Positions 99-22,530 of a DNA stretch of 64,000 nt are shown here, in pieces. How positions within the stretch are numbered: the stretch's first letter is position 1; every line of letters starts with the position of its first letter. The position numbers were made by a program, and so were the translations under genes. The DNA comes from Halioglobus sp. (GTDB lineage: Bacteria > Pseudomonadota > Gammaproteobacteria > Pseudomonadales > Halieaceae): contig JBDNIE010000365.1 in the NCBI GenBank assembly GCA_041688425.1, positions 746-64,745 on the forward strand, written 5' to 3'. The notes under the pieces are model-generated. The model saw nothing but the letters and a program-made list of their open reading frames with translations, was not told the origin of the DNA and searched no databases.

Positions 99-334
99 GC
101 ACTGGGGGTTTGGTGCTGACGCTGCTTGAAGTTTTTGGTTGCTGCTGCTGAACACGAGCCCGAGAGCCAGATGTACGGGCTCGGGCGGCAAGGTCCTCTC
201 GCCATAAAGTCCCGCCCACACATCTGACTCTCAGGCTCTCTGCTCGCGACAAGTTTCAAACTGAGGTACTAGCAGATTCGCAATGCCGCTGACGGCGCAG
301 TGGTATACTCGGTCGCGACAAGGACACTTCAATC

Positions 335-1255: not shown

Positions 1256-1267
1256 CGCGACTGAGCC

Positions 1268-2086: not shown

Positions 2087-2088
2087 TG

Positions 2089-3237
2089 CTATAATTCTTT
2101 TTGGTAGACGCGGTAGCGTTTATACGCCACGCCGCCGATGGTTTCAATGATATTGCGCATGCCGTCGTTATCCTCAAGTATCCAGCCCATTTCAACGTCC
2201 TTCACACCGCGCGCATGCAGCGCCTTGCGTACAGCGTCTATCACCATAAACGCCAGAGTCGGTCCCAGACGCGAATGCTGGAAGCTCTGCTTAACCCCCA
2301 TCAGGGGTACGCGAGCCGTTTTCGGATGGCCAACCTTCAGCCGCCAGAGGAGCTTGGCCCAGCCAAAGGGCAGCAACGAGCCCTTCAGGTCGCGAGCCGC
2401 TTCATTGAGATTGGGCAGCGCCACTATAAAAGCGACTGCCTCGCCGTCGTACTCGGCGATCTGGATGTAGTCGTCGGGCATCAGTTTTGTCAGTGTGGAT
2501 ACCGTTTCGATCCAGTCCGCTTCCGCCAGCGGCACAAACCCCCAGTTGCTCCGCCACGCATCGTTAAAGATATCCAGCATAATGCGCGCATCTTCCCGCA
2601 GGTGTTTGCGCCTGACTGAGCGCACCCTGACGCGATCCGATACGCGCTGCGCCAGCCGCTCCATAATGCGCGGCGCTTCAAAATCCGGTTTTACATGATA
2701 CGCCAGCAGGTCTTTTGCTCCGATGTACCCCTGCGACTCCACGCCCGCGCCGTACCACGGTCGCGCATGGCCCATGAGAACGTAGGGCGGCGTAGAAAAG
2801 CCCTTTACCAACAAACCCACTTCCTCGTTAACATGCAAATTGAATGGTCCGCGCACCTGTCGCATGCCTTCACTGCGCAGCCAATTCTCAGCGACCTCGA
2901 ACAACACTGCAAATATGGCCGGATCATCATCTGCTTCCAGCATGCCGAAGTAACCTGTTGCGTCCGCATGCTGCTGCAGATGCATCTCGTCGATCTGGGC
3001 GGTGATCCGCCCGACCGGCTCCCCGCCGCGCAAGGCAATCCAGGCGCACCAGCGAGCGTGTTCGAAAAAATGGTTTTTCGGGGACATCTGCTCGCGTTTC
3101 ATAAAATCGAGCGGCGCTATCCACGCTGGGTCAGATGCGTAAATACGCTTCGGCAGCGCTAGAAACTGCCGCATCTGTGCAGATTCAGTCACGCGTTCCA
3201 CGGTGATTAGCGCGCTGTTATCGTTATTCGCTGTCAT
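2089..3237 (-). CDS. GNAT-fold acyl-CoA N-acyltransferase-like protein (about 380-aa family usually annotated N-acetyltransferase)
   Basis: 382-aa ORF, 2 nt upstream of the NTP-transferase ORF. Length and sequence recall the conserved proteobacterial family annotated as N-acetyltransferase. Recognition is from memory, not motif-proven. Confidence 0.6.
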   Translation of the reverse strand: MTANNDNSALITVERVTESAQMRQFLALPKRIYASDPAWIAPLDFMKREQMSPKNHFFEHARWCAWIALRGGEPVGRITAQIDEMHLQQHADATGYFGMLEADDDPAIFAVLFEVAENWLRSEGMRQVRGPFNLHVNEEVGLLVKGFSTPPYVLMGHARPWYGAGVESQGYIGAKDLLAYHVKPDFEAPRIMERLAQRVSDRVRVRSVRRKHLREDARIMLDIFNDAWRSNWGFVPLAEADWIETVSTLTKLMPDDYIQIAEYDGEAVAFIVALPNLNEAARDLKGSLLPFGWAKLLWRLKVGHPKTARVPLMGVKQSFQHSRLGPTLAFMVIDAVRKALHARGVKDVEMGWILEDNDGMRNIIETIGGVAYKRYRVYQKEL

Positions 3238-3274
3238 GCTGCGGCGCTGTATCCATTAAATAGCGGGCAAGTAT

Positions 3275-3291
3275 AGCGTTGAATCAACGCT
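3275..3291. promoter_or_regulatory. perfect palindrome AGCGTTGA-a-TCAACGCT in the divergent region between the GNAT-like gene and the GT4 gene
   Basis: 8-bp arms read directly; lies about 40 nt upstream of the minus-strand start at 3237. Function (operator or hairpin) unknown. Confidence 0.3.
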
Positions 3292-3440
3292 CTGAGAAAT
3301 CGGGCGGCATCTCGCGTATCTGCCCGTGCACTGGAACAACTCGCAGCAAAACTGGGGCGTGGAGTGGAGTGCAGTGCGAGTTCAGACAAGAACGGCTCTT
3401 GTTCGAGATTCCAGATCGGCGATGAATTGAATGTCTTAGG

Positions 3441-3549
3441 GTTGGGAGACGCCGTAAATAGGCTCCTGTAGGCCGGGGCTCGGCTTCCTGCCTTCTACAG
3501 TCCCAACCGCATGACATTCAACTCACCGCCTAAGTGCCACCTTTGGGCT
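3441..3549 (+). repeat. structured REP-like intergenic element, copy A (contains the shared 24-nt core CCGCCTAAGTGCCACCTTTGGGCT at 3526-3549)
   Basis: Nested inverted repeats GTTGGGA(3441-3447)/TCCCAAC(3501-3507), CTGTAG/CTACAG and GCCG..CGGC. Segment 3485-3549 aligns without gaps to 29838-29902. Confidence 0.6.
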
Positions 3550-3783
3550 ACAAAAGGGGCGGTTCAGACATTATTTTGGGAACGCAGGAACAATGTCGAC
3601 TCATTTTCTTCGGTGTATACTATACGCTTGCTCGTCTCAACCTATAGTGCCACCAACGCTGCCATCCGAAACTTCCGGGCTGTGGATATTCATTTTGTTT
3701 GAAGTTGACCAGCGCAACGAGGTGTGGCCCACGGGGATACAGCATTGTTGTCGCGGATGTCCTGCGCACAAGAGACTGAAGGA

Positions 3784-5037
3784 ATGAACGACACCCCACC
3801 CACTGAGACTCGCGCCGCGAGGATTGCAGTGCTCCTGCCCTCGCTGGAGGGCGGCGGTGCTGAGCGCTCCATGCTAAACCTGATCAAAGGCTTTCTGGCG
3901 CAGGGTCGGACGGTTGATCTGGTGCTATGTCAGGCAAAAGGCGCGCTCATCAGGGATATCCCAGAGGGCGCGAACCTTGTAGAGCTGGAGGCCGTCAACG
4001 GTTTGCGGGCGAGATGGATGGCGGCGACGGGCAATATCAGAGATTTTTTTGTGTTGCTGCGTCCGATACTACTGACTAAAAAGATTGCACCGGAACTCGC
4101 CCGGATTACAGCGTTACAACAATACATGCAATCTGCCCGGCCCGACGTGGTGCTATCAGCACTCACCTATGCCAACATCGCACTGATATGGGCGAAGCAG
4201 ATGTCCGGCTCCAGCGTCTCGATCATCGTCAGTGAGCGCATCGCTCTGTCCAGCTACTGCGCAGCGCCCTCCAATTCTCGCAAATGGCGCTGGCGCTATC
4301 TGCCGGGTGTGGTGCGCCGGACTTATCCAGGCGCCGATTCCGTGATTGCGGTATCGCATCATGCCGCAGACGAGTTGATCACTGATATTGGGTTGAGTCG
4401 GCAGTCCGTTAAGATCATCCATAATCCCGTTGTCGATGACACTCTGCGAGCGAGCGCGAAAGTCGCGTTGGACCATCCCTGGTTCGCACCCGACTCGGCT
4501 CCGGTGATACTGGCTGTAGGCCGAATGACGGAACAAAAAGATTTCCCGACGCTAATGCGCGCCTTCGCTCAGGTGCGCCGGTACACGCCTGTGCGACTGG
4601 TGATACTCGGTGAGGGCCGACTGCGCGCGGACCTGTGGCAACTCGCAGAGGACCTCGGCATTCAGGAGGACGTAGACATGCCAGGCTTCGTCGACAACCC
4701 ATTTCAATATATGGCGCGCGCTAAGGTGCTTGTATTGTCGTCTCTGTACGAGGGCTTACCCGGCGTACTTATTCAGGCGCTGGCTTGCGGTTGCCCGGTA
4801 GTCAGCACGGATTGCCCCGGTGGTTCCCGGGAGATTCTAGGCGACGGGGAGTATGGCGCGCTTGTACCAGTAGGCGAGGTGGAGCCCATGGCGACTGCGA
4901 TTCGGACGGAGATGGCGCAACCCTCAAACCGGGACAAACTGCTGCGCAGAGCGCAGGACTTCTCGGTCGATCGGGCGGTCAACCACTATCTGGATTTGCT
5001 GGACTCAATAGTCGCACAGGCTGCAAATCCAAAATAA
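3784..5037 (+). CDS. glycosyltransferase family 4 (GT-B fold)
   Basis: RIAVLLPSLEGGGAERSMLNL N-terminus and SLYEGLPGVLIQALACGCPVVSTDCPGGSREIL C-terminal GT4 signature. Start placed at ATG 3784 behind GAAGGA; the ORF track starts at 3724. Confidence 0.85.
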   Translation: MNDTPPTETRAARIAVLLPSLEGGGAERSMLNLIKGFLAQGRTVDLVLCQAKGALIRDIPEGANLVELEAVNGLRARWMAATGNIRDFFVLLRPILLTKKIAPELARITALQQYMQSARPDVVLSALTYANIALIWAKQMSGSSVSIIVSERIALSSYCAAPSNSRKWRWRYLPGVVRRTYPGADSVIAVSHHAADELITDIGLSRQSVKIIHNPVVDDTLRASAKVALDHPWFAPDSAPVILAVGRMTEQKDFPTLMRAFAQVRRYTPVRLVILGEGRLRADLWQLAEDLGIQEDVDMPGFVDNPFQYMARAKVLVLSSLYEGLPGVLIQALACGCPVVSTDCPGGSREILGDGEYGALVPVGEVEPMATAIRTEMAQPSNRDKLLRRAQDFSVDRAVNHYLDLLDSIVAQAANPK

Positions 5038-5051
5038 CAGGGAAATTTGCA

Positions 5052-7010
5052 ATGTGCGGGATTACAGGATTTATACAATATGGCGGCGAGTCATCGGAAG
5101 AGCTCGCCCGCCGCTGTCAACGCATGGCAGACACAATAGCGCACCGCGGCCCTGATGCTGACGGGGTATGGGTGGATCCCTCATACCCGATCGCGCTGGG
5201 CCACCGGCGCCTCTCTATCATCGATCTGTCGGAGGCCGGCGCTCAGCCGATGGTGTCGTCATCCGGTCGCTACGTGCTCTCTTTCAACGGGGAGGTCTAC
5301 AACTTTTCCAGACTGCGCCGCGAAGCCGGGATATCCGATTACCCTTATCAGGGCCACTCCGATACCGAAGTGATTCTGGCAGCAGTGCAACACCTGGGCG
5401 TGGAGCAGGCCATCAGCAGGCTGGAAGGCATGTTCGCAATCGCATTGTGGGACAGACAGGAACGCTGTCTGTGGCTGGCCAGAGACAGGGTGGGTAAAAA
5501 GCCGCTTTACTATGGCTGGAGTGGCAACAGCCTGCTGTTCGGGTCGGAACTCAAAGCCCTGCGCAAGCACCCGGACTTTGACCGTGAGCTGGATCGTAAT
5601 GCGCTGGGACAATACCTGCAGTATGGCTGGGTGTCACAGCCATTATCTATTTACAAACACGTGCGCAAACTGCCGCCGGGCAACCTCCTTCGAATAGCAC
5701 AGGACTGCAAACCCTGGGACGCTCAGCCCAGCGCCTTCTGGAGCGCCAAAGCAGTAGCTGAACAGGGCGAGCGCAACCGCTTCACGGGCAGTTACGAGGA
5801 CGCCGTAGGACAACTGGACATTGTGCTCAATGCGGCAGTGAATGACCGCATGGTGGCCGACGTGGAATTAGGCGCGCTACTCTCCGGCGGCATTGATTCC
5901 TCGATGATCGTCGCGCTGATGCAGAAGCAGTCTGATCGCCCTATCAAAACCTTCAGCATCGGGTTCTGGGAAGAAAAATACAATGAAGCTGAGTACGCTT
6001 CTGCGGTGGCCCGCCACCTGAAAACGGACCATTACGAAATGTATGTCACGCCCGATCAGGCGCTGGACGTGGTGGAAGATCTGCCGCACATCTACGACGA
6101 GCCATTTGCTGACTCGTCGCAAATACCCACCTACCTGGTCTGCAAGCTGGCGCGGGAGCAGCTTAAGGTTGTGCTGACCGGCGATGGCGGTGATGAGCAA
6201 ATGGCCGGTTACCGCCGCTACCAAACGGGCCTCAATCATTGGCGCGATGTGCAGCGCGTCCCCGCAGGAGCAAGAAGTCTGGTGCAGCACATGGCGAGTG
6301 CACTGGGCACCGGGAGTTGGGGTTATGCAAAACGCTACGCTAACGAGGGAAAGTCTGTGCCGCGCTGGACGCGCAAACTGGGGAAGATCAGCCAGCGTTC
6401 CTGCAACTGGGCAGCGAACTCGCCGCAACAAATCCTGGCCAACAAATTCAATAAATGCCTGGCGGTAGACCAGTTTGTGCCGGGGGCGATCGATACCTCG
6501 ACGCCTCTGTCAGATCCATCGTACTGGGCGGACGTCGAGGATCCGCTGCTGTCGATGCTCCACTACGACTATACCGGTTACCTGCCGGACGATATTCTGG
6601 TCAAAGTTGATCGGGCCAGCATGGCAGTGGGTCTGGAGGCGCGAGCGCCACTACTTGATCACCGGGTGCTGGAACTGGCCTGGTCTCTGCCGAGAAACTT
6701 CCTGTTCGACGGCACTGTGGGTAAGCGGGTGCTGCGAGATCTGCTCACCCAATATGTACCCCGCAAGCTGATAGATCGACCCAAGCGCGGCTTCAGTGTG
6801 CCGATAAAGGAATGGCTGGTCGGTCCGCTGCGGGATTGGGCTGAAGATCTGCTGTCGGAAAAAACGCTGCAGGAGCAGGGCATATTTGATGTCAGCAGTG
6901 TGCGCGATGCCTGGCATCAGCACCTGTACGGGTGGGCCAATCACTCCGAACTGATGTGGTCTATCCTCATGTTTCAGGCCTGGTGGAAAGCACAATCGCT
7001 GGAGGCCTAG
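5052..7010 (+). CDS. asparagine synthase (glutamine-hydrolysing) family amidotransferase
   Basis: MCGITGF N-terminus (Ntn Cys2) and LSGGIDSS PP-loop. The ORF-track start at 4785 overlaps the GT4 gene, so ATG 5052 is taken instead. Confidence 0.9.
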   Translation: MCGITGFIQYGGESSEELARRCQRMADTIAHRGPDADGVWVDPSYPIALGHRRLSIIDLSEAGAQPMVSSSGRYVLSFNGEVYNFSRLRREAGISDYPYQGHSDTEVILAAVQHLGVEQAISRLEGMFAIALWDRQERCLWLARDRVGKKPLYYGWSGNSLLFGSELKALRKHPDFDRELDRNALGQYLQYGWVSQPLSIYKHVRKLPPGNLLRIAQDCKPWDAQPSAFWSAKAVAEQGERNRFTGSYEDAVGQLDIVLNAAVNDRMVADVELGALLSGGIDSSMIVALMQKQSDRPIKTFSIGFWEEKYNEAEYASAVARHLKTDHYEMYVTPDQALDVVEDLPHIYDEPFADSSQIPTYLVCKLAREQLKVVLTGDGGDEQMAGYRRYQTGLNHWRDVQRVPAGARSLVQHMASALGTGSWGYAKRYANEGKSVPRWTRKLGKISQRSCNWAANSPQQILANKFNKCLAVDQFVPGAIDTSTPLSDPSYWADVEDPLLSMLHYDYTGYLPDDILVKVDRASMAVGLEARAPLLDHRVLELAWSLPRNFLFDGTVGKRVLRDLLTQYVPRKLIDRPKRGFSVPIKEWLVGPLRDWAEDLLSEKTLQEQGIFDVSSVRDAWHQHLYGWANHSELMWSILMFQAWWKAQSLEA

Positions 7011-7165
7011 GGCTGCTATTTGACGCGGCAGATATGACCGTTCCAAACGCGGTAATAGTGGCCCGTTCACCGCCAACAGATGCGTTCTGATCCTCGACTT
7101 CCTGACCTCGCCTTGACAAAACAGGTAACACGGACTCCATCGCGTAGCGCGCGGCACAATCGCTC

Positions 7166-7212
7166 AAAAAATATATTTTTATTGTTAAATATCAATGGTT
7201 TAAAAAATAATT
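7166..7212. promoter_or_regulatory. A/T-only tract inside the 580-bp untranslated region upstream of the FAAL operon (possible UP element or bending site)
   Basis: AAAAAATATATTTTTATTGTTAAATATCAATGGTTTAAAAAATAATT stands out in an otherwise GC-rich window. No confident -35/-10 pair assigned. Confidence 0.3.
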
Positions 7213-7591
7213 CCGTCTCAGAACAGCCCCCCATCGAAGCCCGTTCCGGCGCCTGTAGGCCGCGTGATAGCCGCCATTATGAATTGCGCACGTCCAAACC
7301 ACATAACCCATCTGTGCGATTGTTCACGCCAGCCATTGGTATTATTTCCTATAAGGCGCAATGCCCAAAATGCTAGGATTACACCCTGTCAGGTAACCCT
7401 TTTCGGGGCCTGAGCGCAGGGTGCCCGCATGTACACATGCTTGTGTAGAAGACTGACAAGTGGCCCGTACGTATACCCCGTTGGGGAATTTATTGAGTTA
7501 AACGCTGTTCCTCTGTCCTTAAGGGGGCAAACAACGTCTGTTTTGAAATTTGTACACCGGCGGAGACATCGTCGAAAACGAGGAATCTACA

Positions 7592-9370
7592 TTGCCACAT
7601 ACTAACGTAAATGCCGCGTCTGCCTACGACAAGCTCCCCTTTCGTGCAGCCGACTTTGCCACACTGACGGAAGCACTCGACTACGCGGCTCAGGGCGATA
7701 CGGGCTCGAGCTTTTACACCGGCCGAGGCGCGGTCTATGCCACATTGTCCTATGCAGAGTTGCGCACGCAAGCGATTGAACTGGCTCATAAACTACTGGG
7801 ACTGGGACTCGAAAAAGGTGCTCGCGTAGCGCTGGTGGCCGAAACCAACCCGGACTTCATTCGTTTCTTTTATGCCTGCCAGTATGCCGGCCTGATTCCT
7901 GTCGCATTGCCGGCATCAGTCAAAGTCGGGGCACACCACGCCTACGTGGCGCAGTTACACCTGCTTCTGGAAGCCAGCGACGCCGCTATCGGTGTCGCCT
8001 CCGAGGGCTACCTGCCTTTCCTGCAGGAAGCCAGTGAGGGCCTTGCTATGCGCATGGTGGCAGTTCCCGAAGCTTTTTACGCACTCTCTGACCTGAAACA
8101 GGAACTGCCTGACGCCAACCCGGACGATATATCCTATATCCAATACACCTCTGGAAGCACACGCTTTCCCCGCGGTGTGGTGATAAAGCACAGCACTGCC
8201 ATGGCTAACCTACAGGGCATCATCTCGCACGGCCTGGAGATGAGTGCTGACGATCGTATGATGTCGTGGCTGCCGTTCTACCACGATATGGGTCTGGTGG
8301 GCTTCGTACTGGTGCCGATGGCAGCTCAGGTGAATATTGATTATCTGGACACCCGCGAGTTTGCAATGCGTCCGCGCCAGTGGCTGGCACTGATGACGCA
8401 GACTCGTGCAACCATCGCCTTTGCTCCCTCCTTCGGTTACGACCTGTGTGCACGCCGCGTGCGGCCCAATGACATCGAAACTTACGACCTCAGCAACTGG
8501 CGTATCGCCGGCATCGGCGCTGAGATGATCCGCCCCCAAACCCTTGAATATTTTGCCGAAATGATGGAGCCAGCAGGCTTTGATCGGCGCGCGTTCCTGG
8601 CTTGTTACGGCATGGCTGAATGCACTTTGGGCGTCAGCTTTTCGCCTCTATGGACCAGTTTCACAACGCACTATATCGACAGTGATCACCTTTCGGATCA
8701 TCACGAAGCCGTGTTGCTTGACGAGGACGACACGCAGGGCCGCGGCCGTCACTTTGTGAACTGTGGCATTCCGATGCCCAATTTCGAAGTGCAAGTTCGC
8801 GATGATAACCGCGTACTCAGTGACTGGGAGAGCGGCGTGATACACCTGCGCGGCCCCAGCGTAATGGCGGGCTATTTCAACTTGCCGGAGGAAACCAGTC
8901 ACGCGCTGAGCGACGATGGCTGGCTCAATACCGGTGATATCGGCTACCTGGTGGATGGCGTACTGACCATCACCGGTCGCAAAAAAGACCTGATCATCAT
9001 CCATGGCCGCAATATCTGGCCACAGGACCTTGAGCACGTTGCCGAAACGCAAGAAGAAGTGCGGGCAGGGGATGCCGTGGCGTTCTCGGCTCCCAACAGT
9101 GAGGGAGAGGAATTGTGCGTATTGATCGTGCAGTGTCGAGAGACTGATGCAGGCAAACGCAATAACCTGGTTCGTCGCCTTACCGCTCTGGTACGTATGG
9201 AAATGAGCCTGGACTGCTATGTTGAGCTGGTGCCTATTCACTCTCTGCCGCGCACCTCATCAGGCAAATTGTCGCGTGCCAAAGCACGGCTTGATTTCAT
9301 CAACGGCAACGACATGGACAGGCTCGACGCAGCCGCTGAAGAAGTGCGCCTTAGGGTGGCTTCCGCCTGA
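7592..9370 (+). CDS. fatty acyl-AMP ligase (FAAL-type adenylate-forming enzyme)
   Basis: YIQYTSGSTRFPRGVVIKH, NTGDIGY, and GRKKDLIIIHGRNIWPQDLE (the GRN..PQD.E box typical of FAALs such as FadD32), then SSGKLSR. Start taken as TTG 7592 behind GAGGAA; the ORF track gives TTG 7550. Confidence 0.85.
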   Translation: MPHTNVNAASAYDKLPFRAADFATLTEALDYAAQGDTGSSFYTGRGAVYATLSYAELRTQAIELAHKLLGLGLEKGARVALVAETNPDFIRFFYACQYAGLIPVALPASVKVGAHHAYVAQLHLLLEASDAAIGVASEGYLPFLQEASEGLAMRMVAVPEAFYALSDLKQELPDANPDDISYIQYTSGSTRFPRGVVIKHSTAMANLQGIISHGLEMSADDRMMSWLPFYHDMGLVGFVLVPMAAQVNIDYLDTREFAMRPRQWLALMTQTRATIAFAPSFGYDLCARRVRPNDIETYDLSNWRIAGIGAEMIRPQTLEYFAEMMEPAGFDRRAFLACYGMAECTLGVSFSPLWTSFTTHYIDSDHLSDHHEAVLLDEDDTQGRGRHFVNCGIPMPNFEVQVRDDNRVLSDWESGVIHLRGPSVMAGYFNLPEETSHALSDDGWLNTGDIGYLVDGVLTITGRKKDLIIIHGRNIWPQDLEHVAETQEEVRAGDAVAFSAPNSEGEELCVLIVQCRETDAGKRNNLVRRLTALVRMEMSLDCYVELVPIHSLPRTSSGKLSRAKARLDFINGNDMDRLDAAAEEVRLRVASA

Positions 9371-10305
9371 TAGCCGACGGCAGCCTCATCGCCGTTACCG
9401 GCGCGACAGGCTTCATCGGTGCCTCCTTATGCCAGCACCTGCGCGAACGCGGTTTCCCGATTCGCGCGCTGGTCAGAAATCCTGCCAAGGCCATACAGCT
9501 TAAGTCGCTGGGCGTAACCCTCGTAGAGGGCGACCTCTCCAATGCCACCGCACTTGAACAACTCTTTTCGCAGTGCGCTGCCGTCATACACTGCGCGGGC
9601 ACTGTCAGGGGAAATTCACAGACCGAATTCGACCAGGTCAACGTTGCCGGAACAGCCGCTGTGCTGCGCGCGATCAGGGCGCAGGCCAGCCCCCCGCGCT
9701 TGATAATGCTATCATCGCTGGTGGCGCGGGAGCCGCAAATCTCCTGGTACGCGCGCAGTAAATCTGCGGGCGAGCAACTGCTGGCGGAGTCTGCTGATCT
9801 CGACCATGTTGTAATCCGCCCGCCAGCCGTTTACGGGCCGGGCGACAAAGAAATGCTGCCGATATTTCAATGCATGCAGCGGGGGTTCGCGCCGGTGCCT
9901 GGCGCCTTGGAGGCTCGCCTCTCGCTGATCCACGTGACCGACCTGGTGACAGCCATAATCGCCTGCCTGCAAAGCGAGGCTGCCAGTGGACAAACCCTGA
10001 CCTTGTGTGACGGCAGGCGCGGCGGGTACAACTGGCACGAGATGGCCGACATTGCCGCTCAACACTGGTCGCGCCGCGTGCGACTGTGGCAAATCCCGTA
10101 CTGGCTGCTCAACAGCATCGCCGCGCTGAATAGTAAACTGGCTGGCATCACCGGCAATGCGCCCATGCTGACGCCGCCGAAAGTGCGCGAACTGCGGCAC
10201 AGGGACTGGGTTGTGGACAATACGGCAATATTTGCAGCCACTGGCTGGACACCCTCAGTGGAGCTGCAACAAGGGCTGCAACAGCTCAAATTACCAGCAC
10301 TTTGA
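9367..10305 (+). CDS. NAD-dependent epimerase/dehydratase-family SDR (start codon unresolved)
   Basis: Frame open from 9355 encodes IAVTGATGFIGASL (Rossmann GxxGxxG) at 9391-9432, then ..VIHCAG.., ..YARSK... There is no ATG/GTG/TTG before 9661. The only candidates are CTG 9367 (overlapping the FAAL stop as CTGA) or ATA 9370. Confidence 0.7.
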   Translation: MIADGSLIAVTGATGFIGASLCQHLRERGFPIRALVRNPAKAIQLKSLGVTLVEGDLSNATALEQLFSQCAAVIHCAGTVRGNSQTEFDQVNVAGTAAVLRAIRAQASPPRLIMLSSLVAREPQISWYARSKSAGEQLLAESADLDHVVIRPPAVYGPGDKEMLPIFQCMQRGFAPVPGALEARLSLIHVTDLVTAIIACLQSEAASGQTLTLCDGRRGGYNWHEMADIAAQHWSRRVRLWQIPYWLLNSIAALNSKLAGITGNAPMLTPPKVRELRHRDWVVDNTAIFAATGWTPSVELQQGLQQLKLPAL

Positions 10306-10335
10306 CCGCGAACCGCACCGCCATACTGCGATATA

Positions 10336-11367
10336 ATGCGTCACTTTTCGTTAAAACCTCAACGTCAGGCAAACCTAACCGTGGCAGAGTTTATAGTCGG
10401 CAATCCACTGCGCAAATGGGCACGCGATAACCGCGTGTTGCGTGAGGTGCTGTGGCGACTCGATTTTGTGCTGGTCTGGATGGTGACAAAACTGGCGCGG
10501 CTACTGCCCATCGATACCGCTTCCCGATTCGGAGAACGTGTCGGCCGCTGGATAGGGCCGAAGCTTAAGCAAAAGACAGCGATATACCGTGCCAATCTCG
10601 CCATCGCATTTCCCGACTTAAGCGACCCTGAGCTCGATGAACTGGTGACCCGCGCCTGGGGACGGTCGGGCCGGGTGATGGCGGAATACCCACATCTGGC
10701 AAAGATCCTCGCGGAAGATGATCGCCTGCAGATAGACATCCGCGAACCCATCGAGACCTACGAAAATCCTGCCAGGCCCTGTGTCATCGTGACAGCTCAC
10801 CAGAGCAATTGGGAAGTGGTATGCTCTGCCATGGCCAAACTGCATATCCCTAACGCCAGTCTCTACTCTCCCCCCACCAATCCACTGCTGGATCGCATGT
10901 TGTTAGAGTCGCGCAGCGCACTGAACTGCGAGCTGCTGCCACGCGAGAACAGCGCCCGCCTGCTGATGCGCGCCCTAAAGCAAGGGAAAACTGCCGCCAT
11001 GGTGATGGACAGGCGGGTCGATGAAGGCAAAGCCATACCGTTTTTCGGGCGAGAGAAACTCTCGACCATTATGCCGGCCAAACTCGCACTCAAGTTCAAC
11101 TGCGATCTGGTGCCGGTGCAGGTGGAGCGCATGCAGGACGCCCACTTTAAAGTCACCTTTCATCCCCCTGTGCGCCCTCGCGATCTCAGCGCGGACGACA
11201 ATGAGCAAGCCATCGATATGATCGAGCAGGTTCACGCCCAGTTCGAAAACTGGATTCGCCAGCAACCAGAAGACTGGTTCTGCTCGAAACGTCTGTGGCC
11301 AAAGGGTAAACTAGCTAACACTGAGGAGACTGGCCATGACGCCGACACCAATTCCCATGCAGCCTGA
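10336..11367 (+). CDS. LpxL/HtrB/PatA-family lysophospholipid (lipid A-type) acyltransferase 1
   Basis: 343 aa, N-terminal membrane anchor, VTAHQSNWE (H-x4-E catalytic box) and MDRRVDEGKAIPFFG, as in Lip_A_acyltrans proteins. Confidence 0.8.
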   Translation: MRHFSLKPQRQANLTVAEFIVGNPLRKWARDNRVLREVLWRLDFVLVWMVTKLARLLPIDTASRFGERVGRWIGPKLKQKTAIYRANLAIAFPDLSDPELDELVTRAWGRSGRVMAEYPHLAKILAEDDRLQIDIREPIETYENPARPCVIVTAHQSNWEVVCSAMAKLHIPNASLYSPPTNPLLDRMLLESRSALNCELLPRENSARLLMRALKQGKTAAMVMDRRVDEGKAIPFFGREKLSTIMPAKLALKFNCDLVPVQVERMQDAHFKVTFHPPVRPRDLSADDNEQAIDMIEQVHAQFENWIRQQPEDWFCSKRLWPKGKLANTEETGHDADTNSHAA

Positions 11368-11968
11368 GAAACAACATCAATCCATTCGGTTGTTCCAGAA
11401 CGATTTTCTTGAACGGCTTTCCCACGTCCATCCCATCACACCGCTGCTGATCTGGGGGCCTCTGGCCGCCTGGCTGATCTGGCGCAGTTTCGCCGTTTAC
11501 CAACTCCCGGTACTTCCTGTGCTAGCCATCGGCGTGGCTGGTGTTGCCACCTGGAGTCTCACTGAATATTGCCTGCACCGTTTTTTGTTCCACTTCCCCG
11601 CCAAAAGTAAGATGGGCACATGGCTGGTCTTCCTTTTTCATGGCAACCACCATGAAGACCCCAAAGACAAAACCCGTCTGGTCATGCCGCCCGCAGGCGC
11701 ACTGCCGATTATGGCAGTGCTATACCTGCTATTCGGTCTCTTTATCCCGCAACCCTGGATTCAACCGTTTTGCGCGTTTTTCATCATCGGATATTTGATC
11801 TATGACTACATCCACTATTCAACCCATCATTTCCCCATGCGCAACCCGGTGGCAAAATATCTAAAGCTCTACCACCTGAAGCACCACTATTCCGGAGAGG
11901 GTGGTCGCTACGGCGTCAGCTCGCCTATTTGGGATAGGGTATTCGGCTCAGATCCGGGCCAGGACTGA
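11336..11968 (+). CDS. membrane di-iron fatty acid hydroxylase superfamily protein
   Basis: Histidine boxes HRFLFH, HGNHH, HYSTHH and HLKHH with several TM segments. ATG 11336 sits behind GAGGAG and overlaps the upstream gene by 32 nt. Confidence 0.85.
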   Translation: MTPTPIPMQPEKQHQSIRLFQNDFLERLSHVHPITPLLIWGPLAAWLIWRSFAVYQLPVLPVLAIGVAGVATWSLTEYCLHRFLFHFPAKSKMGTWLVFLFHGNHHEDPKDKTRLVMPPAGALPIMAVLYLLFGLFIPQPWIQPFCAFFIIGYLIYDYIHYSTHHFPMRNPVAKYLKLYHLKHHYSGEGGRYGVSSPIWDRVFGSDPGQD

Positions 11969-11978
11969 GTCTGCCCGA

Positions 11979-12911
11979 GTGCCCGAGTTCTATCTTGTTC
12001 CCAAGCGTCTTGCACGCAAGGCGCCGTTTCTGGTCGCCGCCGCCCAGCGCCTCGAGGCCGCCTTATTCCGCGGCACCTTCTGGCTTATGCGCAAGCTCAG
12101 CGTTGAGCGCGCCCTGCAATTGTGCGGCTTCACCTTCGAACTGGTTGGCCGATTTTCTGACAAGGCGGCTAAAGCGCGAGAGAATCTGGCCATTGCCTTC
12201 CCGGATGAATCCCCCGAGTGGCGAGACAACACCACCCGAGAGATTTTCCGGCACCTCGGCTACTCTGCAGCAGAACTGGTAAAACTGGAAAAAATCTGGG
12301 AAGAGCGCGAACAACGCATAGAATTTGTGCTGGAACCAGAGGCTCTCAAGCACATGGAGAGCAAGAACGCGACGGTTTTCATGACCGCGCATGTCGGCGC
12401 CTGGCAAGTCGCCTCGCTGGTAACACGCCAGTTCGGATTCAACATCAGCGCAATCTACGCGCCGGAATCCAACCCGGTGATGCAAGAGTTCATGCAGGCG
12501 CTACGCCAATCATTTGGAGAAACCTTGATTCCCGCCGATGCCGGGCCTCGTCCGCTCATTAAAGCGTTGAACGCGGGCGGCAGTATCATCATGGCGATGG
12601 ACACACGTCCCGAGACCGGCAAGCTCATCCCCTTTTTCGGCGTGGACGCGCTCACCAACACCAGCGCTGCGGGTCTTGCGCTGCGCACCGGCGCGGCATT
12701 GGTGGTATCGCGCGCCGAGCGCCTGCCCGGCGCGCGCTATCGAGTCACCGTTTACGACCCGCTGGCCAGCCCGATCCCGGATGCGCCGGTCAAGGAACAG
12801 GCCGTAGCACTGACCGAAATCATCCATCATTATTTTGAAGACTGGATCAGGGAGTATCCGCAGCAGTGGGTCTGCCTGAAGCGGCGCTGGCCGAAGGCGC
12901 ACAAGCTGTAG
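11979..12911 (+). CDS. LpxL/HtrB/PatA-family acyltransferase 2
   Basis: MTAHVGAWQ box (H-x4-Q instead of H-x4-D/E), MDTRPETGKLIPFFG, and a C-terminal WIREYPQQW like copy 1 (WIRQQPEDW). Start uncertain: GTG 11979, or ATG 11901 overlapping the hydroxylase gene. Confidence 0.75.
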   Translation: MPEFYLVPKRLARKAPFLVAAAQRLEAALFRGTFWLMRKLSVERALQLCGFTFELVGRFSDKAAKARENLAIAFPDESPEWRDNTTREIFRHLGYSAAELVKLEKIWEEREQRIEFVLEPEALKHMESKNATVFMTAHVGAWQVASLVTRQFGFNISAIYAPESNPVMQEFMQALRQSFGETLIPADAGPRPLIKALNAGGSIIMAMDTRPETGKLIPFFGVDALTNTSAAGLALRTGAALVVSRAERLPGARYRVTVYDPLASPIPDAPVKEQAVALTEIIHHYFEDWIREYPQQWVCLKRRWPKAHKL

Positions 12912-13134
12912 GCATCATGTAGGTAGCCAATGGGCAGGCATTAACGCAGCCCGAACCGCAAGAAATTGGACAAGATCAGGCGGCTTTGACGTATCATGCC
13001 GCTCGCCGTTCACACATCTAAACGGCGATAAAAATTTAAGATAAGACGACAAAATTCAGCACAAACTATTATGGGAGCGTCCAATTTCTAAGCCCAAACA
13101 CAATAGCTCGCTAGCCGTCTGCATCTGCACCTTT

Positions 13135-14055
13135 ATGCGGACTGAGGGTCTGTTGCGCCTGCTAAATGGACTAGAAAAGCAGATATTTTCTGCCATGCCG
13201 CAGCCGTCCGTGCTACTTATTGTGGTTGATAATTCTCCCGACGGTTCGGCTGCAGCAACCTGCGAATCGCGGCAATGGCACTGGCCGCTGCTTTACCTGC
13301 ATGAGCCCCGACCAGGCATCTCGCATGCCCGCAATACAGCGCTGGCAGCCGTGCCGGATGGTAGTGATTTCATCGCTATGATCGACGACGACGAGGTCCC
13401 CGCTCCCGACTGGCTGGATCAGCTACTCAATGCACAGGCGCGCAGCGGCGCAGACATCGTTGTGGGGCCAGCCGCGCCCGTCTTTCCTGCGGAGACCCCG
13501 GATTGGATAGCAGCCAGCAGTATTTTTATGAAGCCGGAGAACACGGCCAACCTGCAGGAGTTGGATCCCGACCCCCCTGCAGCGACCTGCAACGTGCTGG
13601 TGCGCGCCGGCCTACTCGGTCCGTCGGGCTTGTCGTTTGAACCCGCACTGGCGCTAAGCGGCGGCGAGGACAAGCTGTTGTTCCAGTCGCTAAAACTGCG
13701 CGGCCATCAATTCGCCTGGGCTGCCGCCGCACATGTCAGCGAATGGATTCCGGCCGAGCGTGCAAATTTCGCCTACATGTGGCGAGAATCCTATCGCCGC
13801 GGTTGCGTGAAGTACTTTGTCAAACGACGCCTGAAGTCCGGGTCCCCCATCGGCGCACTGCGCATTGCACTGCGTATGACAGTGCAATCGCTGGGTCTGA
13901 GTGCATGGCATCTGCTGCGCCTACTAACTTGTCTTGGCCAGACGCGCAGTGCGTGGGTGCCTTATGCACTCAAGCTCGCCGACAACCTGGGCACGATTGC
14001 AGGTGTGCTACAAATCCCCAACCGACACTATCGGCCCAAGGATGTTGCGTGCTGA
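13135..14055 (+). CDS. glycosyltransferase family 2 (conservative coordinates; the coding sequence almost certainly begins upstream)
   Basis: VVDNSPDGS, MIDDDE (DxD) and GGEDKLLF motifs. The conserved first strand LAVCICTF is encoded at 13111-13134, upstream of the first ATG. See the finding on start codons. Confidence 0.8.
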   Translation: MRTEGLLRLLNGLEKQIFSAMPQPSVLLIVVDNSPDGSAAATCESRQWHWPLLYLHEPRPGISHARNTALAAVPDGSDFIAMIDDDEVPAPDWLDQLLNAQARSGADIVVGPAAPVFPAETPDWIAASSIFMKPENTANLQELDPDPPAATCNVLVRAGLLGPSGLSFEPALALSGGEDKLLFQSLKLRGHQFAWAAAAHVSEWIPAERANFAYMWRESYRRGCVKYFVKRRLKSGSPIGALRIALRMTVQSLGLSAWHLLRLLTCLGQTRSAWVPYALKLADNLGTIAGVLQIPNRHYRPKDVAC

Positions 14056-15293
14056 ACCTATCGTTTGTGGACAGCGAGCGGCGCTGGAGCCTGCCTAACG
14101 CTGTCTTAGTAACCTATACACTTTTTCTGGCCGGTTTTTTCTTCGTCCCTAATGCTGTGGATAATTATAAATTCTACGTCACGGCAGTGTTCCTGCCAGG
14201 CCTCTTCCTGCTAAAGGGAACTCTGAGCACATGCCTGCGCAGCCCTATCTGGCTGAGTCTTCTGGCGTATCTGGCCTACATGCTGCTGAGTTCGCTGTGG
14301 AGTGAGAATTTCACTCTCCCCGCGCTATGGCGCGATGTCCGCTACACAGCCTACATACTGTCGTTCATACTGCTGACGATCTATTGGTTTGAGCGCAGTC
14401 GTTTGTTGCCAGACGCGGTTATGGATGCCGTTACTCTGGTGGTTATCGTGGCGGCGGCGATCTCGGTCACTACCTTCGAGGGTCTGCTATCGCTCCCCAA
14501 CTTGCCGGCGGAGCGCATGGAAGGGTTTGGTATTACGGATAACCCGAACCCGAGTGCGTTTGTGTATGGCTTTTTTGCCGTTATCGCATTGGATAACGCG
14601 CGCAGGCACTGGGGTGAATGGCTGGGCTACCTCTATGCCATGGGCGTTCTGGTGATAGCCGCGTTTGTCGTTCTCACGCAGAGCAATACTGGCATGCTAG
14701 CGCTGGCGACGGCCTGCGGATTACTGTTTCTCCTCGATCGTAGCCCGGTGCAACCTGCAATGGTTATTGCACTTTTCTTCAGTATTGCGGCGGCCACCGC
14801 ACTGGCCTGGTCTTTTGGAATAATTAGTGCATCCACCGACCACGGTTTTATGAACCGCCTCCCTATATGGGAAAGCATCCTGCAGCAGTGGCAGAGTGCC
14901 CCTGTGTTCGGGTACGGCTATCAACAGACGATCATGCTGCGTCCAAACGGTATGCCAAGCATCATGAATTACGCGCATAACAGTTTTCTTTCGACACTGC
15001 GCGACGGTGGACTTGTCGGACTGGTGATGTTGCTTACGGTCTTCGGGCTTGTATTGCGCGCTGGGCTCAAAATGGTCTACATAGAGCATCGCGCACGGTA
15101 TTTTTGCATGTTCGCGTTTGGCATCGTGTGCATGCTCGCCGATGCCGATCAGCTCATAACCCGGCCGCGGGAGCTGTGGATCATTCTCTGGTTACCGCTG
15201 GCTTGTCTTATGGCCTATGAGATTGGATTGACCGGTGCGGATGCGCCTAAATCGTCTGCTGGCCGGCGCGGCGGCTCACCGAAGAATACTTGA
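14049..15293 (+). CDS. O-antigen ligase / O-antigen polymerase family (Wzy_C) polytopic membrane protein
   Basis: About 10 predicted TM segments and a periplasmic-loop region YAHNSFLSTLRDGGLVGLVML typical of Wzy_C. Start GTG 14049 overlaps the GT2 stop (GTGCTGA). The ORF-track start at 13743 lies inside the GT2 gene. Confidence 0.75.
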   Translation: MLNLSFVDSERRWSLPNAVLVTYTLFLAGFFFVPNAVDNYKFYVTAVFLPGLFLLKGTLSTCLRSPIWLSLLAYLAYMLLSSLWSENFTLPALWRDVRYTAYILSFILLTIYWFERSRLLPDAVMDAVTLVVIVAAAISVTTFEGLLSLPNLPAERMEGFGITDNPNPSAFVYGFFAVIALDNARRHWGEWLGYLYAMGVLVIAAFVVLTQSNTGMLALATACGLLFLLDRSPVQPAMVIALFFSIAAATALAWSFGIISASTDHGFMNRLPIWESILQQWQSAPVFGYGYQQTIMLRPNGMPSIMNYAHNSFLSTLRDGGLVGLVMLLTVFGLVLRAGLKMVYIEHRARYFCMFAFGIVCMLADADQLITRPRELWIILWLPLACLMAYEIGLTGADAPKSSAGRRGGSPKNT

Positions 15294-16522
15294 TGATAGC
15301 CATCCACCGCGCGCTCCAGTGAAAACTCGCGTCCGCGCTGGCGTAACTTTTCCGACTGGGGCTCACTTGCCAGAGCGGCCAGAATACCCGCCGCCAGACT
15401 CTCTGGGTCATTAACCGGCACCAGTGTGCCGTACTGGCCGTTATCGAGAATCTCTGCCGGACCGCTAGGACAATCGGTACTGACGACTGGACAGCCGGCT
15501 AACAGCGCCTCGACCACCACGTTCCCAAATCCCTCAAAGCTTGAAGACAGCACAAATACCCGAGCAGCACGCAGGAACGCGTGGGGATCACTTTGATAAC
15601 CGAGAAGAGCAACGTCATCCGCTACCCCCAGCTCCTGCGCCAGGTCTTGTAGTTCTTGGCGATGCGCCATCTGTTCAATCGATGACTTGTCGCCCCCAAG
15701 GATGACCAACCTTACCTCGCACTGCTGGCGCACGGCAGAGAATGCGCGAATAAGCAGGGGGAAGTTTTTCTGCTCCACAAGGCGGCCCATACCCAGGATA
15801 ACAGGGGGTGCACCGGCACGAAACCAGGGGTGTGAGGGAGTGCTGTGTGCATCATCAGCGGGCGGCGCTGTGAAAACGGGGTTGTAAACCACATTGACCC
15901 GCTCTCTATCCAGCCCAAGAAAACGTATGGCGTCTTCGGCAACGCCGTGTGACGCGGCGATCACGCCGTGCGCCCTGGGGAAACAGTATCGGAATAGCGG
16001 CACCATGCTGTATGCCTGCCCTTTGCCACTCATTCGACTTAACGCACTGCGCACCGACAATGCGATATGGACGCCCACATAAACCCGTGTCGTGACACCC
16101 GGCGCAGAAGCTGCAAGGACAACACTCGTACTGGACTTTCCCAGAGCAGAAGAAATCACGGTGGGAGAAGTGTTCTGAAGATACGCGGTAATATCGCGAA
16201 TATAGCGGAAGCACCGCGGAATTTTGCGCGCCGAAATCACCCAGAAAAGAATACCGCGTAATCCTTGCCAGCCGCCTCGCCCCAGCGCCGAACAAAGCCC
16301 GGTCAGTTTGCCGACCGGCTCCATGACCAACAGATTGACACCAGGGGGTACGCTGTCACATAACTCACCTTGCAACTCGCAGACCAACAGATCAACCTCA
16401 TAGCCAATCGATGCAAAACCTGAGGCCATGCCCAACACAACACGCTCGGCGCCGCCGCCGTTGAGATTATCCAGCAAGAATGCGATCCGTTGCGGCTTGG
16501 CCTGCTCTGTCTGCAGCGACAT
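15215..16522 (-). CDS. glycosyltransferase family 4
   Basis: RIAFLLDNLNGGGAERVVLGM and SSFEGFGNVVVEALLAGCPVVSTDCPSGPAEIL. Start taken at Met15 (16522). The 3' end overlaps the convergent Wzy_C gene by 79 nt. Confidence 0.85.
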   Translation of the reverse strand: MSLQTEQAKPQRIAFLLDNLNGGGAERVVLGMASGFASIGYEVDLLVCELQGELCDSVPPGVNLLVMEPVGKLTGLCSALGRGGWQGLRGILFWVISARKIPRCFRYIRDITAYLQNTSPTVISSALGKSSTSVVLAASAPGVTTRVYVGVHIALSVRSALSRMSGKGQAYSMVPLFRYCFPRAHGVIAASHGVAEDAIRFLGLDRERVNVVYNPVFTAPPADDAHSTPSHPWFRAGAPPVILGMGRLVEQKNFPLLIRAFSAVRQQCEVRLVILGGDKSSIEQMAHRQELQDLAQELGVADDVALLGYQSDPHAFLRAARVFVLSSSFEGFGNVVVEALLAGCPVVSTDCPSGPAEILDNGQYGTLVPVNDPESLAAGILAALASEPQSEKLRQRGREFSLERAVDGYHQVFFGEPPRRPADDLGASAPVNPIS

Positions 16523-16696
16523 TAGATGAATTTCCATATTAAGAACCACTGCGAACGAAGCCATAGCTCAGATACGCATTGGTCGGGCACGCTATTATAT
16601 GTCAGCGAAATCCGCTGTCCACCTGTCACCGGCTGCACATAAGTACTTGATCATCCCCTGTGTCTAGAGTTTTACGAGCGCCGGCATTCAGATAGA

Positions 16697-18025
16697 ATGC
16701 GCGAGTTACCCATCCACCGTTCTACACTGCAGGGAGAGCGCCCCATCTCGTCTATCCAACCAAAGCGCACGAAACTCTGGCTGACTTCACCACATTTCTA
16801 TCCCACGTACGGCGGTGCGCAAAATCGCTATCGCAGTTATATTCCGGGGCTGCTGGAGCGCGGCCTGGATGTGCGTGTTATGACAGGCACCCCGCAGATA
16901 CAAGAGCGCAGCGAGTCGGACACTGACGAAAACTGGTATCAGGCAGCACCGGGCAACTGGTTACCTCAAACCCTACTGGACGGCGCACCGCTGGAGCGCA
17001 TACGCCTGCCCGACAGCAAGAACCGAGTCCGTACACGAATTTACTACGATGCGTTGCTGCAGGTGTGCCAACGCGAGGACGAGGGTCCAACGGTCGCACA
17101 ATTGCTGACCAATATGCGGCCTCAGGCACTGCCGTGGTTGCGCCAGTTAAAAGAAAGCGGCGTCGCCACGGTGTACTCCGTCTCCCAGTTTCCGAACTGG
17201 CAACAGAAGCCACTCAAACGCATATTGCGGCGACGTGGTTATCAAAAGGTCTTCAACGCGTTTGATGCCCTTGTCACCAACAGTGAGGCGATCAAAGCAT
17301 TTCTGCGCGACATCGGCGTGACAGCGCGCATTGAGTACATTCCAAACGGGGTCAACCTGCAACGTTTCCACCCGGTACGATCAGAGCATGACCGTCAGAT
17401 GCGTGCGACGCTGCGCGATCAATTTGGCATACCGGCTGATCACAAGGTCATTGTAGCGGTGGGCGCGGTCATGCCGCGCAAGGGTCCGGATAAGGTATTG
17501 CAGGCCTGGCGCCGGATTCTGCCGCGCTTCCCGAACACGCACGTGATGTTTGTCGGACCGCGCGCCGCCACCCAAGACCCGAAGCTGCAAAAATTCGGTG
17601 CCGAAATTGAGGAACTGGTGAGCGCCTCTGGCGTGCCCGAACAAGTACACTTCACCGGCATTGTCGACGATGTCGAAAACTATCTACGCGCCGCAGACAT
17701 CTCCATCCTCGCCTCCAATCGCGAGGGCACGCCCAATTCCGTATTAGAAGCGATGGCGACCGGCCTGCCATGTATCGTCACGCCGTTCCTTGGCATATCG
17801 GAGGGCATCGGCAAGGCGGGGGAACACTACATGCTGGTAGAGCGCGACCCCGAGGCTATTGCCGCACAGTTGACTCAGCTGCTGGAGAACGAAGCTACCG
17901 GAAAGTCTTTCGCGGAGAGCGGTGAGTGCTTCGTGGTGGCTAACCTCGACCAACAACTCAGCCTCGATCACTACGCGGCGCTCTATGAAGAACTCGCTAA
18001 CCTTGCAGAGCGACGACGCAACTAA
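16697..18025 (+). CDS. glycosyltransferase family 4
   Basis: SPHFYPTYGGAQ N-terminus and LASNREGTPNSVLEAMATGLPCIVTPF GT4 C-terminal signature. Confidence 0.85.
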   Translation: MRELPIHRSTLQGERPISSIQPKRTKLWLTSPHFYPTYGGAQNRYRSYIPGLLERGLDVRVMTGTPQIQERSESDTDENWYQAAPGNWLPQTLLDGAPLERIRLPDSKNRVRTRIYYDALLQVCQREDEGPTVAQLLTNMRPQALPWLRQLKESGVATVYSVSQFPNWQQKPLKRILRRRGYQKVFNAFDALVTNSEAIKAFLRDIGVTARIEYIPNGVNLQRFHPVRSEHDRQMRATLRDQFGIPADHKVIVAVGAVMPRKGPDKVLQAWRRILPRFPNTHVMFVGPRAATQDPKLQKFGAEIEELVSASGVPEQVHFTGIVDDVENYLRAADISILASNREGTPNSVLEAMATGLPCIVTPFLGISEGIGKAGEHYMLVERDPEAIAAQLTQLLENEATGKSFAESGECFVVANLDQQLSLDHYAALYEELANLAERRRN

Positions 18026-18079
18026 CGTGTCAGTACTCAGGGTGATGCGCCCGGAACACGGCCCAGCTATTACCTGCGA

Positions 18080-22528: not shown

Positions 22529-22530
22529 AC

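Follow-up and report, generated by a model that had tools for sequence, protein, structure and literature searches.

In Alpha-, Beta- and Gammaproteobacteria, serine palmitoyltransferase (Spt) uses a dedicated carrier, AcpR, that is loaded by AasR, a specialised acyl-ACP synthetase (PMC9386255, PMC11324152). Note that AasR acylates only its cognate AcpR, and not coenzyme A (CoA) or AcpP (PMC9386255). Dihydroceramide synthesis is then finished by CerR, an epimerase-type short-chain dehydrogenase/reductase (SDR), and bCerS, known as CC_1154 in Caulobacter and YghO in E. coli (PMC9386255, PMC11324152). YghO, or ECD_02850, is given as the CC_1154 homologue (PMC9386255), and CerR corresponds to CC_1164 and ECD_02852. 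In Caulobacter, CC_1154 adjoins CC_1153, which is MobA/CobY-like, and CC_1158 is a phosphoesterase (PMC11324152). Here, we describe a locus from Halioglobus sp., located on contig JBDNIE010000365.1 of assembly GCA_041688425.1. The window, by which we mean the whole stretch of 64,000 nucleotides (nt) analysed, contains a block of five co-directional genes at positions 7592-12911. These encode a fatty acyl-AMP ligase (FAAL), an SDR, and two acyltransferases (AT1 and AT2) with a fatty acid hydroxylase (FAH) between them. We consider it probable that this Halioglobus-like member of the Halieaceae has a sphingolipid locus, and that the block represents its aasR-cerR operon with three accessory, ceramide-modifying genes added.

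Our reference was the E. coli BL21(DE3) cluster, with gene order yghO-FAAL-epimerase-ACP-spt-lptG-lptF, where ACP is an acyl carrier protein. Proteins from the window, and from a contig called L005 that extends further upstream, were compared with this cluster by BLASTP. FAAL is 44.6% identical to AasR over 552 aa (E = 2e-165), and the SDR is 40.7% identical to the epimerase, CerR, over 300 aa (E = 2e-77). A 382-aa protein, encoded at 2089-3237, matches YghO/bCerS with 46.8% identity over 374 aa (E = 1.6e-133). For the carrier and Spt of the locus, the matches to AcpR and E. coli Spt have 38% identity over 73 aa (E = 6e-16) and 53.7% identity over 387 aa (E = 2e-148), respectively. Among solved structures, FAAL is best matched by 3pbk, an FAAL from E. 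coli (E = 1.6e-151). Since orthology to the E. coli BL21 cluster is full length, and matching parts are present at the locus, we regard 7592-10305 as the likely aasR-cerR pair of the known ceramide pathway. By orthology to the characterised AasR, FAAL is predicted to load AcpR for Spt. An earlier account of this DNA, made from its letters alone and referred to here as the sequence-only reading, proposed an undescribed five-gene module. For the FAAL and SDR genes this cannot be maintained, because their orthologues already belong to a characterised pathway.

The wider organisation of the locus is similar to that in E. coli BL21 and Caulobacter (CC_1152-CC_1168). Hence, aasR and cerR are adjacent, with overlapping stop and start codons, bCerS is beside a MobA-like gene, and the locus includes a calcineurin-like phosphoesterase gene and an LptF/LptG pair. 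The MobA-like gene, the counterpart of CC_1153, is kept beside bCerS in Halieaceae and Roseovarius loci. The phosphoesterase is a domain-level counterpart of RccE and CC_1158, and its gene also follows spt and the murA-like gene in other loci of our set (L001 and L003-L006). There are also differences. The reference clusters have neither LpxL-type acyltransferases nor a PF04116 hydroxylase; in Caulobacter, the N-acyl hydroxylase belongs to the DesA family and has its gene elsewhere. In addition, acpR-spt is here approximately 10 kb from aasR-cerR, with a variable glycosyltransferase island in between, and cerR appears to start with CTG. The rcc cluster of Roseovarius (PMC11789144) shares AasR, CerR, an ACP, Spt (RccD), the RccE phosphodiesterase, the MsbA-like transporter RccF, and CerS. 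In three Roseovarius genomes examined, R. tolerans not among them, it also contains AT1-FAH-AT2, followed by an ELM1-like gene.

In the sequence-only reading, FAAL was described as carrier-less. That account saw no open reading frame (ORF) of a size expected for an ACP or peptidyl carrier protein between 3.2 and 18.9 kb. In the whole 64-kb window, no significant ACP was found by tblastn, for which AcpP and two AcpR sequences served as queries, or by a small ACP hidden Markov model applied to all 781 stop-to-stop segments with a length of 45 aa or more. The ORFs at 7080-7376 and 3284-3517 have no Pfam match. However, the window begins too late. Using the exact sequence of the protein encoded at 335-1255, we found two contigs, L005 and L006, that are 99.9% identical to window positions 247-11255 and reach approximately 9.7 kb further upstream. 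Reading toward the window, they encode an ELM1-like protein, a sulfotransferase, LptF, LptG, an MsbA-like ABC transporter, a second ELM1-like protein, an 80-aa PP-binding protein, a 401-aa aminotransferase (Aminotran_1_2), and a MurA-type protein. The 80-aa protein, AcpR, is encoded approximately 2.4-2.6 kb upstream of window position 1, and spt is approximately 1.2-2.4 kb upstream. The aminotransferase passes the NCBIfam equivalog model for serine palmitoyltransferase (NF047599, 588.6 bits, cutoff 500), and its best solved relatives are Sphingomonas SPT structures (E approximately 4e-120). The layout is repeated in L001, a less closely related Halieaceae locus, as ACP-spt-murA-phosphoesterase-MobA-like-GNAT-like, then FAAL-SDR-AT-hydroxylase-AT. 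The sole carrier found in the locus adjoins spt. Because a dedicated ACP sits approximately 10 kb away in the same locus, FAAL is not carrier-less. We conclude that the apparent absence of a carrier is a window-edge effect.

Profile searches used Pfam and NCBIfam models with curated cutoffs, while sequence searches relied on BLASTP, tblastn and matching to PDB sequences. All five family assignments made from sequence agree with the profile searches (Table 1). Re-reading of the coordinates also bore out the tight packing of the genes. From left to right, the first two genes share CTGA at 9367-9370, the next pair is 30 nt apart, AT1 and FAH overlap by 32 nt, and 10 nt separate FAH from AT2. The FAAL-type GRN..PQD.E box is present as GRNIWPQDLE, and translation of the SDR gene gives TGATGFIG and YARSK. 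As first described, AT1 carries H-x4-E (HQSNWE), AT2 carries H-x4-Q (HVGAWQ), and the hydroxylase between them has four His boxes. No terminator or promoter inside the operon scored above shuffled controls. A megablast search against plasmids gave no match for the block, and an Rfam scan of the window detected a single tRNA as its only RNA family.

The sole PDB relatives of FAH are structures of yeast Scs7 (4zr0/4zr1, E = 1e-24), and the match covers the HGxHHxxPxDxxRLVMPP box. Scs7 is the yeast ceramide very-long-chain fatty acid alpha-hydroxylase. In an alignment of 41 FAH homologues the His boxes are invariant. FAH shares with eukaryotic Scs7/FA2H, and with the FA2H homologues of myxobacteria, both the His-box pattern and a link to sphingolipids. 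It differs in that it is a protein of 210 aa, flanked by two acyltransferases, with a predicted activity. No cytochrome b5 domain was found in FAH; the only domain detected was PF04116, and the alignment with Scs7 begins after the b5 part. A 10-sequence alignment of the family was then used to search genomes, one for each species. The 80 loci obtained were compared with proteins of the Halioglobus locus by tblastn. An Spt and/or bCerS-like gene is within 10 kb of the FAH homologue in 30 of the 80. These 30 loci are from Halieaceae, two beta-proteobacterial metagenome-assembled genomes (MAGs), a Pseudomonadales MAG, Roseovarius, Bdellovibrionota, Methylomirabilota, Verrucomicrobia and Bacteroidota. 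CerR-like genes also co-localise with FAH homologues. PMC10002949, citing Ring et al. 2009, links FA2H-like enzymes of myxobacteria to sphingolipid formation. Because of this precedent, and because Spt and bCerS co-localise with FAH across phyla, a role for FAH in ceramide hydroxylation is well supported by context. We presume that FAH is a ceramide N-acyl alpha-hydroxylase.

The AT1-FAH-AT2 triad recurs. Among the same 80 loci, AT2 directly follows FAH in 17 and AT1 directly precedes it in 15. All but one of the 17 loci with the FAH-AT2 unit also have AasR, Spt or bCerS. The full AT1-FAH-AT2 order was found in Halieaceae, in one Porticoccaceae locus and in three Roseovarius genomes, while AT1 is missing from two further Porticoccaceae loci, which read aasR-cerR-FAH-AT2. 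In all three genomes of Roseovarius, AT1-FAH-AT2-ELM1 is between bCerS and the MsbA-like rccF homologue, and the acyltransferases are only 40-45% identical to those in the window. One of these Roseovarius islands (L020) also has ceramide-kinase-like and Tam41-like genes; none were seen in the approximately 10 kb upstream of the window covered by L005/L006. Note that Halieaceae relatives, with identities of at least 68-81%, filled the results of homology searches with FAAL and AT2, and these searches supplied no distant contexts. A limited literature search for any link between an LpxL/lauroyl acyltransferase and bacterial sphingolipids or Spt found nothing relevant. We conclude that the triad is a conserved accessory unit of sphingolipid loci, undescribed as far as the literature was searched.

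The AT-FAH-AT unit is accompanied by two ELM1-like (PF06258) genes in Halieaceae, where they are upstream of the window, as well as in Roseovarius (Table 1). No PDB sequence relative was found for the ELM1-like protein. In A. baumannii, the ELM1-family protein KdoT transfers 3-deoxy-D-manno-oct-2-ulosonic acid (Kdo) to precursors of lipid A (PMC12856342).

AT1 and AT2 share the PF03279 family and fold with LpxL, LpxM and PatA. AT1 aligns to A. baumannii LpxM (5kn7, E = 4.4e-10), with its catalytic His matched to the HFGTWE motif, and AT2 aligns to the same protein with E = 4.5e-12. The AlphaFold model of AT2 (pLDDT 82) matches LpxM (5kn7/5knk, E = 6e-13) and PatA (E = 2e-9). In AT1, H-x2-N-W-E, which keeps the H-x4-E arrangement, is invariant in 22 orthologues. 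The equivalent AT2 sequence is H-x-G-x-W-Q in 18 orthologues, with N in place of Q in two more. Q or N has thus consistently taken the place of the acidic residue that was altered to give the LpxM E127A structure. The 310-aa form of AT2 is the common public gene call. With PRK06553 (cutoff 273), AT1 scores 165.8 bits, AT2 scores 143.2, and the Roseovarius copies score 154 and 144. The scores of AT1 and AT2 are 85 and 76 bits for TIGR02207 (cutoff 298), 70 and 50 bits for TIGR02208 (cutoff 336), and 75.8 and 52.3 bits for the PatA model NF005919 (cutoff 209). AT1, AT2 and the Roseovarius copies are therefore below every curated lipid A acyltransferase cutoff, and AT1 and AT2 are also below that for PatA. 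Furthermore, unlike LpxL, LpxM and PatA, the two proteins have ceramide genes and an Scs7-like hydroxylase as partners, rather than lpx/kds or phosphatidylinositol mannoside genes.

We propose the following pathway. A free fatty acid would be adenylated by AasR and passed to the 80-aa AcpR. Spt would condense acyl-AcpR with serine, generating 3-oxosphinganine. N-acylation by bCerS, and reduction of the 3-keto group by CerR, would then yield dihydroceramide. These steps rest on orthology to characterised genes of E. coli BL21, Caulobacter and Roseovarius. For what follows, we infer that FAH would hydroxylate the amide-linked acyl chain, and that AT2, the constant partner of FAH, would act with AT1 to esterify free hydroxyls of the ceramide or a glycosylated form. 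The product would be an acyloxyacyl sphingolipid, with three or four chains, analogous to the LpxL/LpxM chains on lipid A. Acyl-AcpR or acyl-ACP may be the donor; we speculate that acyl-AcpR, in this role, would explain the operon link to aasR. Export would be by the MsbA-like flippase and LptF/G, encoded just upstream. Hence, our best guess is that the triad yields alpha-hydroxy, O-acylated ceramides of three or four chains. The sequence-only reading had already suggested that a hydroxyl made by the hydroxylase is esterified by the paired LpxL-type enzymes, on lipid A or a glycolipid. We retain this as a best guess for a glycolipid, with lipid A less favoured.

Described systems provide parallels for the proposed product. 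For LpxL/LpxM and PatA, the shared logic is an ester-linked secondary chain on a hydroxylated primary chain or glycolipid. Porphyromonas gingivalis has three-chain phosphoglycerol dihydroceramides, in which the third aliphatic chain is ester-linked (PMC3037954). Such lipids are of the kind proposed here, although the organism is from another phylum. The extra chain in P. gingivalis sits on a 3-hydroxy acyl group, and we know of no acyltransferase assigned to it. Vibrio cholerae AlmEFG resembles our system in combining an adenylating enzyme with an LpxL-family transferase. In that system, AlmE activates glycine, which is placed on a carrier, AlmF, for use by AlmG. The adenylating enzyme of our locus is instead a fatty acyl-AMP ligase, an orthologue of AasR predicted to serve Spt, and the carrier adjoins spt.

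The acyltransferases could have another function. AT1 and AT2 might be ordinary late acyltransferases of lipid A, LpxL and LpxM, located in an envelope region, with FAH modifying a lipid A chain. JGI labels the AT2 family KDO2-lipid IV(A) lauroyltransferase, and LpxM is the best structural relative of both enzymes. LptF and LptG of the locus pass NCBIfam cutoffs (their identity to the copies in the E. coli BL21 cluster is 33% for LptF and 31% for LptG), and a Wzy_C protein and ELM1-like genes are present, KdoT being a relative that acts on Kdo-lipid A. Halieaceae also hold 3-hydroxy C10-C12 fatty acids, which are typical of lipid A. Conversely, the scores above are far below the curated lipid A models, the NCBI name for the AT2 family is merely 'lysophospholipid acyltransferase family protein', and the catalytic acid of AT2 has undergone a conserved change to Q or N. 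The neighbouring ABC transporter, at 257 bits, falls short of the cutoff of 602 for canonical MsbA. The genes for AT1 and AT2 are packed tightly with that for FAH, whose family follows Spt and bCerS across phyla, rather than lipid A genes. Lipid A 2-hydroxylation is done by LpxO, an unrelated enzyme. In Roseovarius, the triad is inside a ceramide island reported to be absent from sister species. Given the sub-cutoff scores, the non-canonical MsbA-like neighbour, the packing with FAH and the accessory nature of the Roseovarius island, we think a lipid A function unlikely. Lipid A as the preferred target is therefore not supported.

Other explanations concern FAAL. Without a carrier, it could hand acyl-AMP, or an SDR-modified derivative, directly to acyltransferases that remodel lipid A or a glycolipid built by GT4 enzymes. 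The tight coupling of the five genes, and the lack of an ACP across the 64-kb window, are compatible with this. It is nonetheless very improbable, given the ACP beside spt in the same locus, the orthology of FAAL to an enzyme that acylates only its cognate AcpR, and the orthology of the SDR to CerR. Similarly, FAAL and the SDR might generate a fatty aldehyde or alcohol for wax ester synthesis, by the wax ester synthase/diacylglycerol acyltransferase (WS/DGAT) encoded 8 kb downstream. The SDR does weakly match thioester-reductase and male-sterility NAD-binding models. However, its score for the TIGR01746 thioester-reductase model is 53.7 bits, against a cutoff of 213, and its orthology to CerR is full length. 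Furthermore, in L001 the 6.3 kb downstream of AT2 has no WS/DGAT. The region instead encodes a GT4-sulfotransferase fusion, then the same 2-oxoglutarate (2OG) oxygenase and beta-lactamase-family proteins as the window, followed by AsmA. We regard this route as the least credible of those considered.

Several observations weigh against a ceramide-modifying operon of the kind we propose. The published roseoceramides are plain 14:0/12:0 dihydroceramides, with no extra hydroxyl and no third acyl chain, and the report leaves the hydroxylase and acyltransferases unmentioned (Ganley & Seyedsayamdost 2025, PMC11789144). LPS-type (lipopolysaccharide-type) genes, encoding LptF/G, the Wzy_C protein and ELM1/KdoT-like transferases, share the locus, so the acyltransferases could serve lipid A. 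The activity of AT2 is uncertain, since it lacks a catalytic acid that is important in LpxM. FAH might act at C2 of the acyl chain or at C4 of the base. In Caulobacter, a periplasmic location has been reported for CerR, so that the order of steps is less simple. Finally, the sole exception among the 17 loci with FAH-AT2 is L019, from a gammaproteobacterial MAG (triad at 9160-11165), where no recognisable sphingolipid gene is within 10 kb on either side; note that Pfam was uninformative for its neighbours, which include spurious ORFs of high GC content.

The start of cerR required separate attention. No ATG, GTG or TTG precedes the Rossmann motif of the SDR, and a conventional ORF starts only at 9661 (9661-10305). 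The junction gcCTGA, over the aasR stop codon, is present in all 12 Halioglobus-type loci (the window, L001, L003 and L007-L015), and none of the 12 has a canonical start upstream of the Rossmann motif. The distance from CTG to the Rossmann codons is 29 nt in 11 of these loci and 44 nt in L001. In most of the 12, a Shine-Dalgarno-like GAGGGTG is approximately 10 nt before the CTG. At the equivalent junction, Roseovarius and E. coli BL21 have ATGA. We conclude that CTG at 9367 is likely to be a translationally coupled start for cerR, because it is the only candidate conserved among relatives. The second codon (ATA, ATC or ATT) was rejected as a start since L001 and L014 do not conserve it. We also rejected a fusion of FAAL with the SDR by -1 frameshifting; only four codons lie between an in-frame TAG (9352-9354) and the CTG, and a slippery heptamer is absent. 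Public gene calls in this clade shorten CerR to 199-274 aa, dropping the Rossmann motif. The truncation is systematic, which a CTG start would explain.

Table 1. Features of the locus. Positions refer to the window unless a contig or locus is named.
Feature	Position	Strand	Evidence or remark
MurA-type gene	1-157; L005 8604-9854		TIGR01072, 574 bits (cutoff 393)
Calcineurin-like phosphoesterase	335-1255	+	PF00149
MobA-like nucleotidyltransferase, next to bCerS	1268-2086	-	PF12804
bCerS (YghO/CC_1154 family N-acyltransferase)	2089-3237	-	BLASTP to YghO; Pfam GNAT match faint
Variable glycan island 1	3724-7010	+	Pfam, NCBIfam
Island 1: GT4	~3786-5037	+	Pfam, NCBIfam
Island 1: AsnB-type amidotransferase	~5054-7010	+	Pfam, NCBIfam
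FAAL (putative AasR)	7592-9370	+	PF00501; NF006624 'fatty acyl-AMP ligase', 759.8 bits (cutoff 600)
SDR (putative CerR), extended SDR, predicted 3-keto reductase	9367-10305	+	PF01370
AT1, LpxL/LpxM/PatA-superfamily acyltransferase	10336-11367	+	PF03279, 167.7 bits
FAH, Scs7/FA2H-type membrane di-iron hydroxylase	11336-11968	+	PF04116
AT2, LpxL-fold acyltransferase	11979-12911	+	PF03279, 121.9 bits
Variable glycan island 2: GT2	13135-14055	+	Pfam
Island 2: Wzy_C/O-antigen-ligase-like membrane protein	ORF 13743-15293	+	Pfam
Island 2: GT4	15215-16564	-	Pfam
Island 2: GT4	16697-18025	+	Pfam
2OG-Fe(II) oxygenase	18080-18835	-	
Beta-lactamase-family protein	18936-20387	-	
WS/DGAT	20930-22528		
AtuA	26224-28029		
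Carboxyltransferase	27981-29648		
Enoyl-CoA hydratase (Atu/Liu-type set)	29933-30757		
Biotin carboxylase	30761-32764		
ELM1-like genes, Halioglobus locus	L005 1-972 and 5997-7043		PF06258
ELM1-like genes, Roseovarius	L020 542-1684 and 11607-12770		PF06258

Two glycosyltransferase islands (3284-7400 and 12912-18079) flank the operon from aasR to AT2. Their content varies among Halieaceae species, while the flanking genes are conserved. Thus, island 1 is fragmented in L003 and L004, and replaced by Wzy_C and GT4 genes in L001. The position of island 2 is occupied, in L001, by the single GT4-sulfotransferase fusion, between the same flanking genes. Variability of this type looks like that of an O-antigen or outer core, inside a sphingolipid locus. 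At the left of the window, the MurA-type gene overlaps the spt stop codon by 1 nt, an arrangement kept across Halieaceae; the gene may be the housekeeping murA, or a paralogue making an enolpyruvyl sugar for a lipid head group. The right border of the locus, formed by the oxygenase and beta-lactamase-family genes, is conserved in the window and L001. Beyond this, 20930-32764 contains genes for WS/DGAT, an alpha/beta hydrolase, an enoyl-CoA hydratase and a major facilitator superfamily transporter, then an Atu/Liu-type set for acyclic terpene/leucine catabolism. These genes appear unrelated to the ceramide finding. A lower-GC patch (0.50-0.53) at 32800-36550 has small genes only, and no RNA family. 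By reading of translations only, their products look like a GFA-family protein, a gamma-glutamyl-cyclotransferase-like protein, a rhodanese, a small membrane protein and DedA.

Bacterial ceramide synthesis has been solved recently, in Caulobacter, E. coli B and Roseovarius, while later modification of ceramide is largely open. The triad, found in Halieaceae, Porticoccaceae and Roseovarius, which are abundant in coastal waters, supplies candidate genes for O-acylation, and a testable route to multi-chain, lipid-A-like sphingolipids. The position of AcpR and spt outside the window also suggests that 'orphan' FAALs, near a window or contig edge, deserve a check for a distal AcpR/spt pair. A more tentative idea, which we consider doubtful on present evidence, is that the triad, the ELM1/KdoT-like transferases, the MsbA-like flippase, LptF/G, the Wzy_C/WaaL-like protein and the glycosyltransferase islands together make a ceramide-anchored analogue of LPS. 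If so, late lipid A acyltransferase paralogues would add secondary, acyloxyacyl chains to a glycosylated sphingolipid, before it is flipped, decorated with variable glycans and exported by Lpt proteins. The marine Gamma- and Alphaproteobacteria concerned would then have a second, sphingolipid-based, outer-leaflet glycolipid, beside or instead of LPS.

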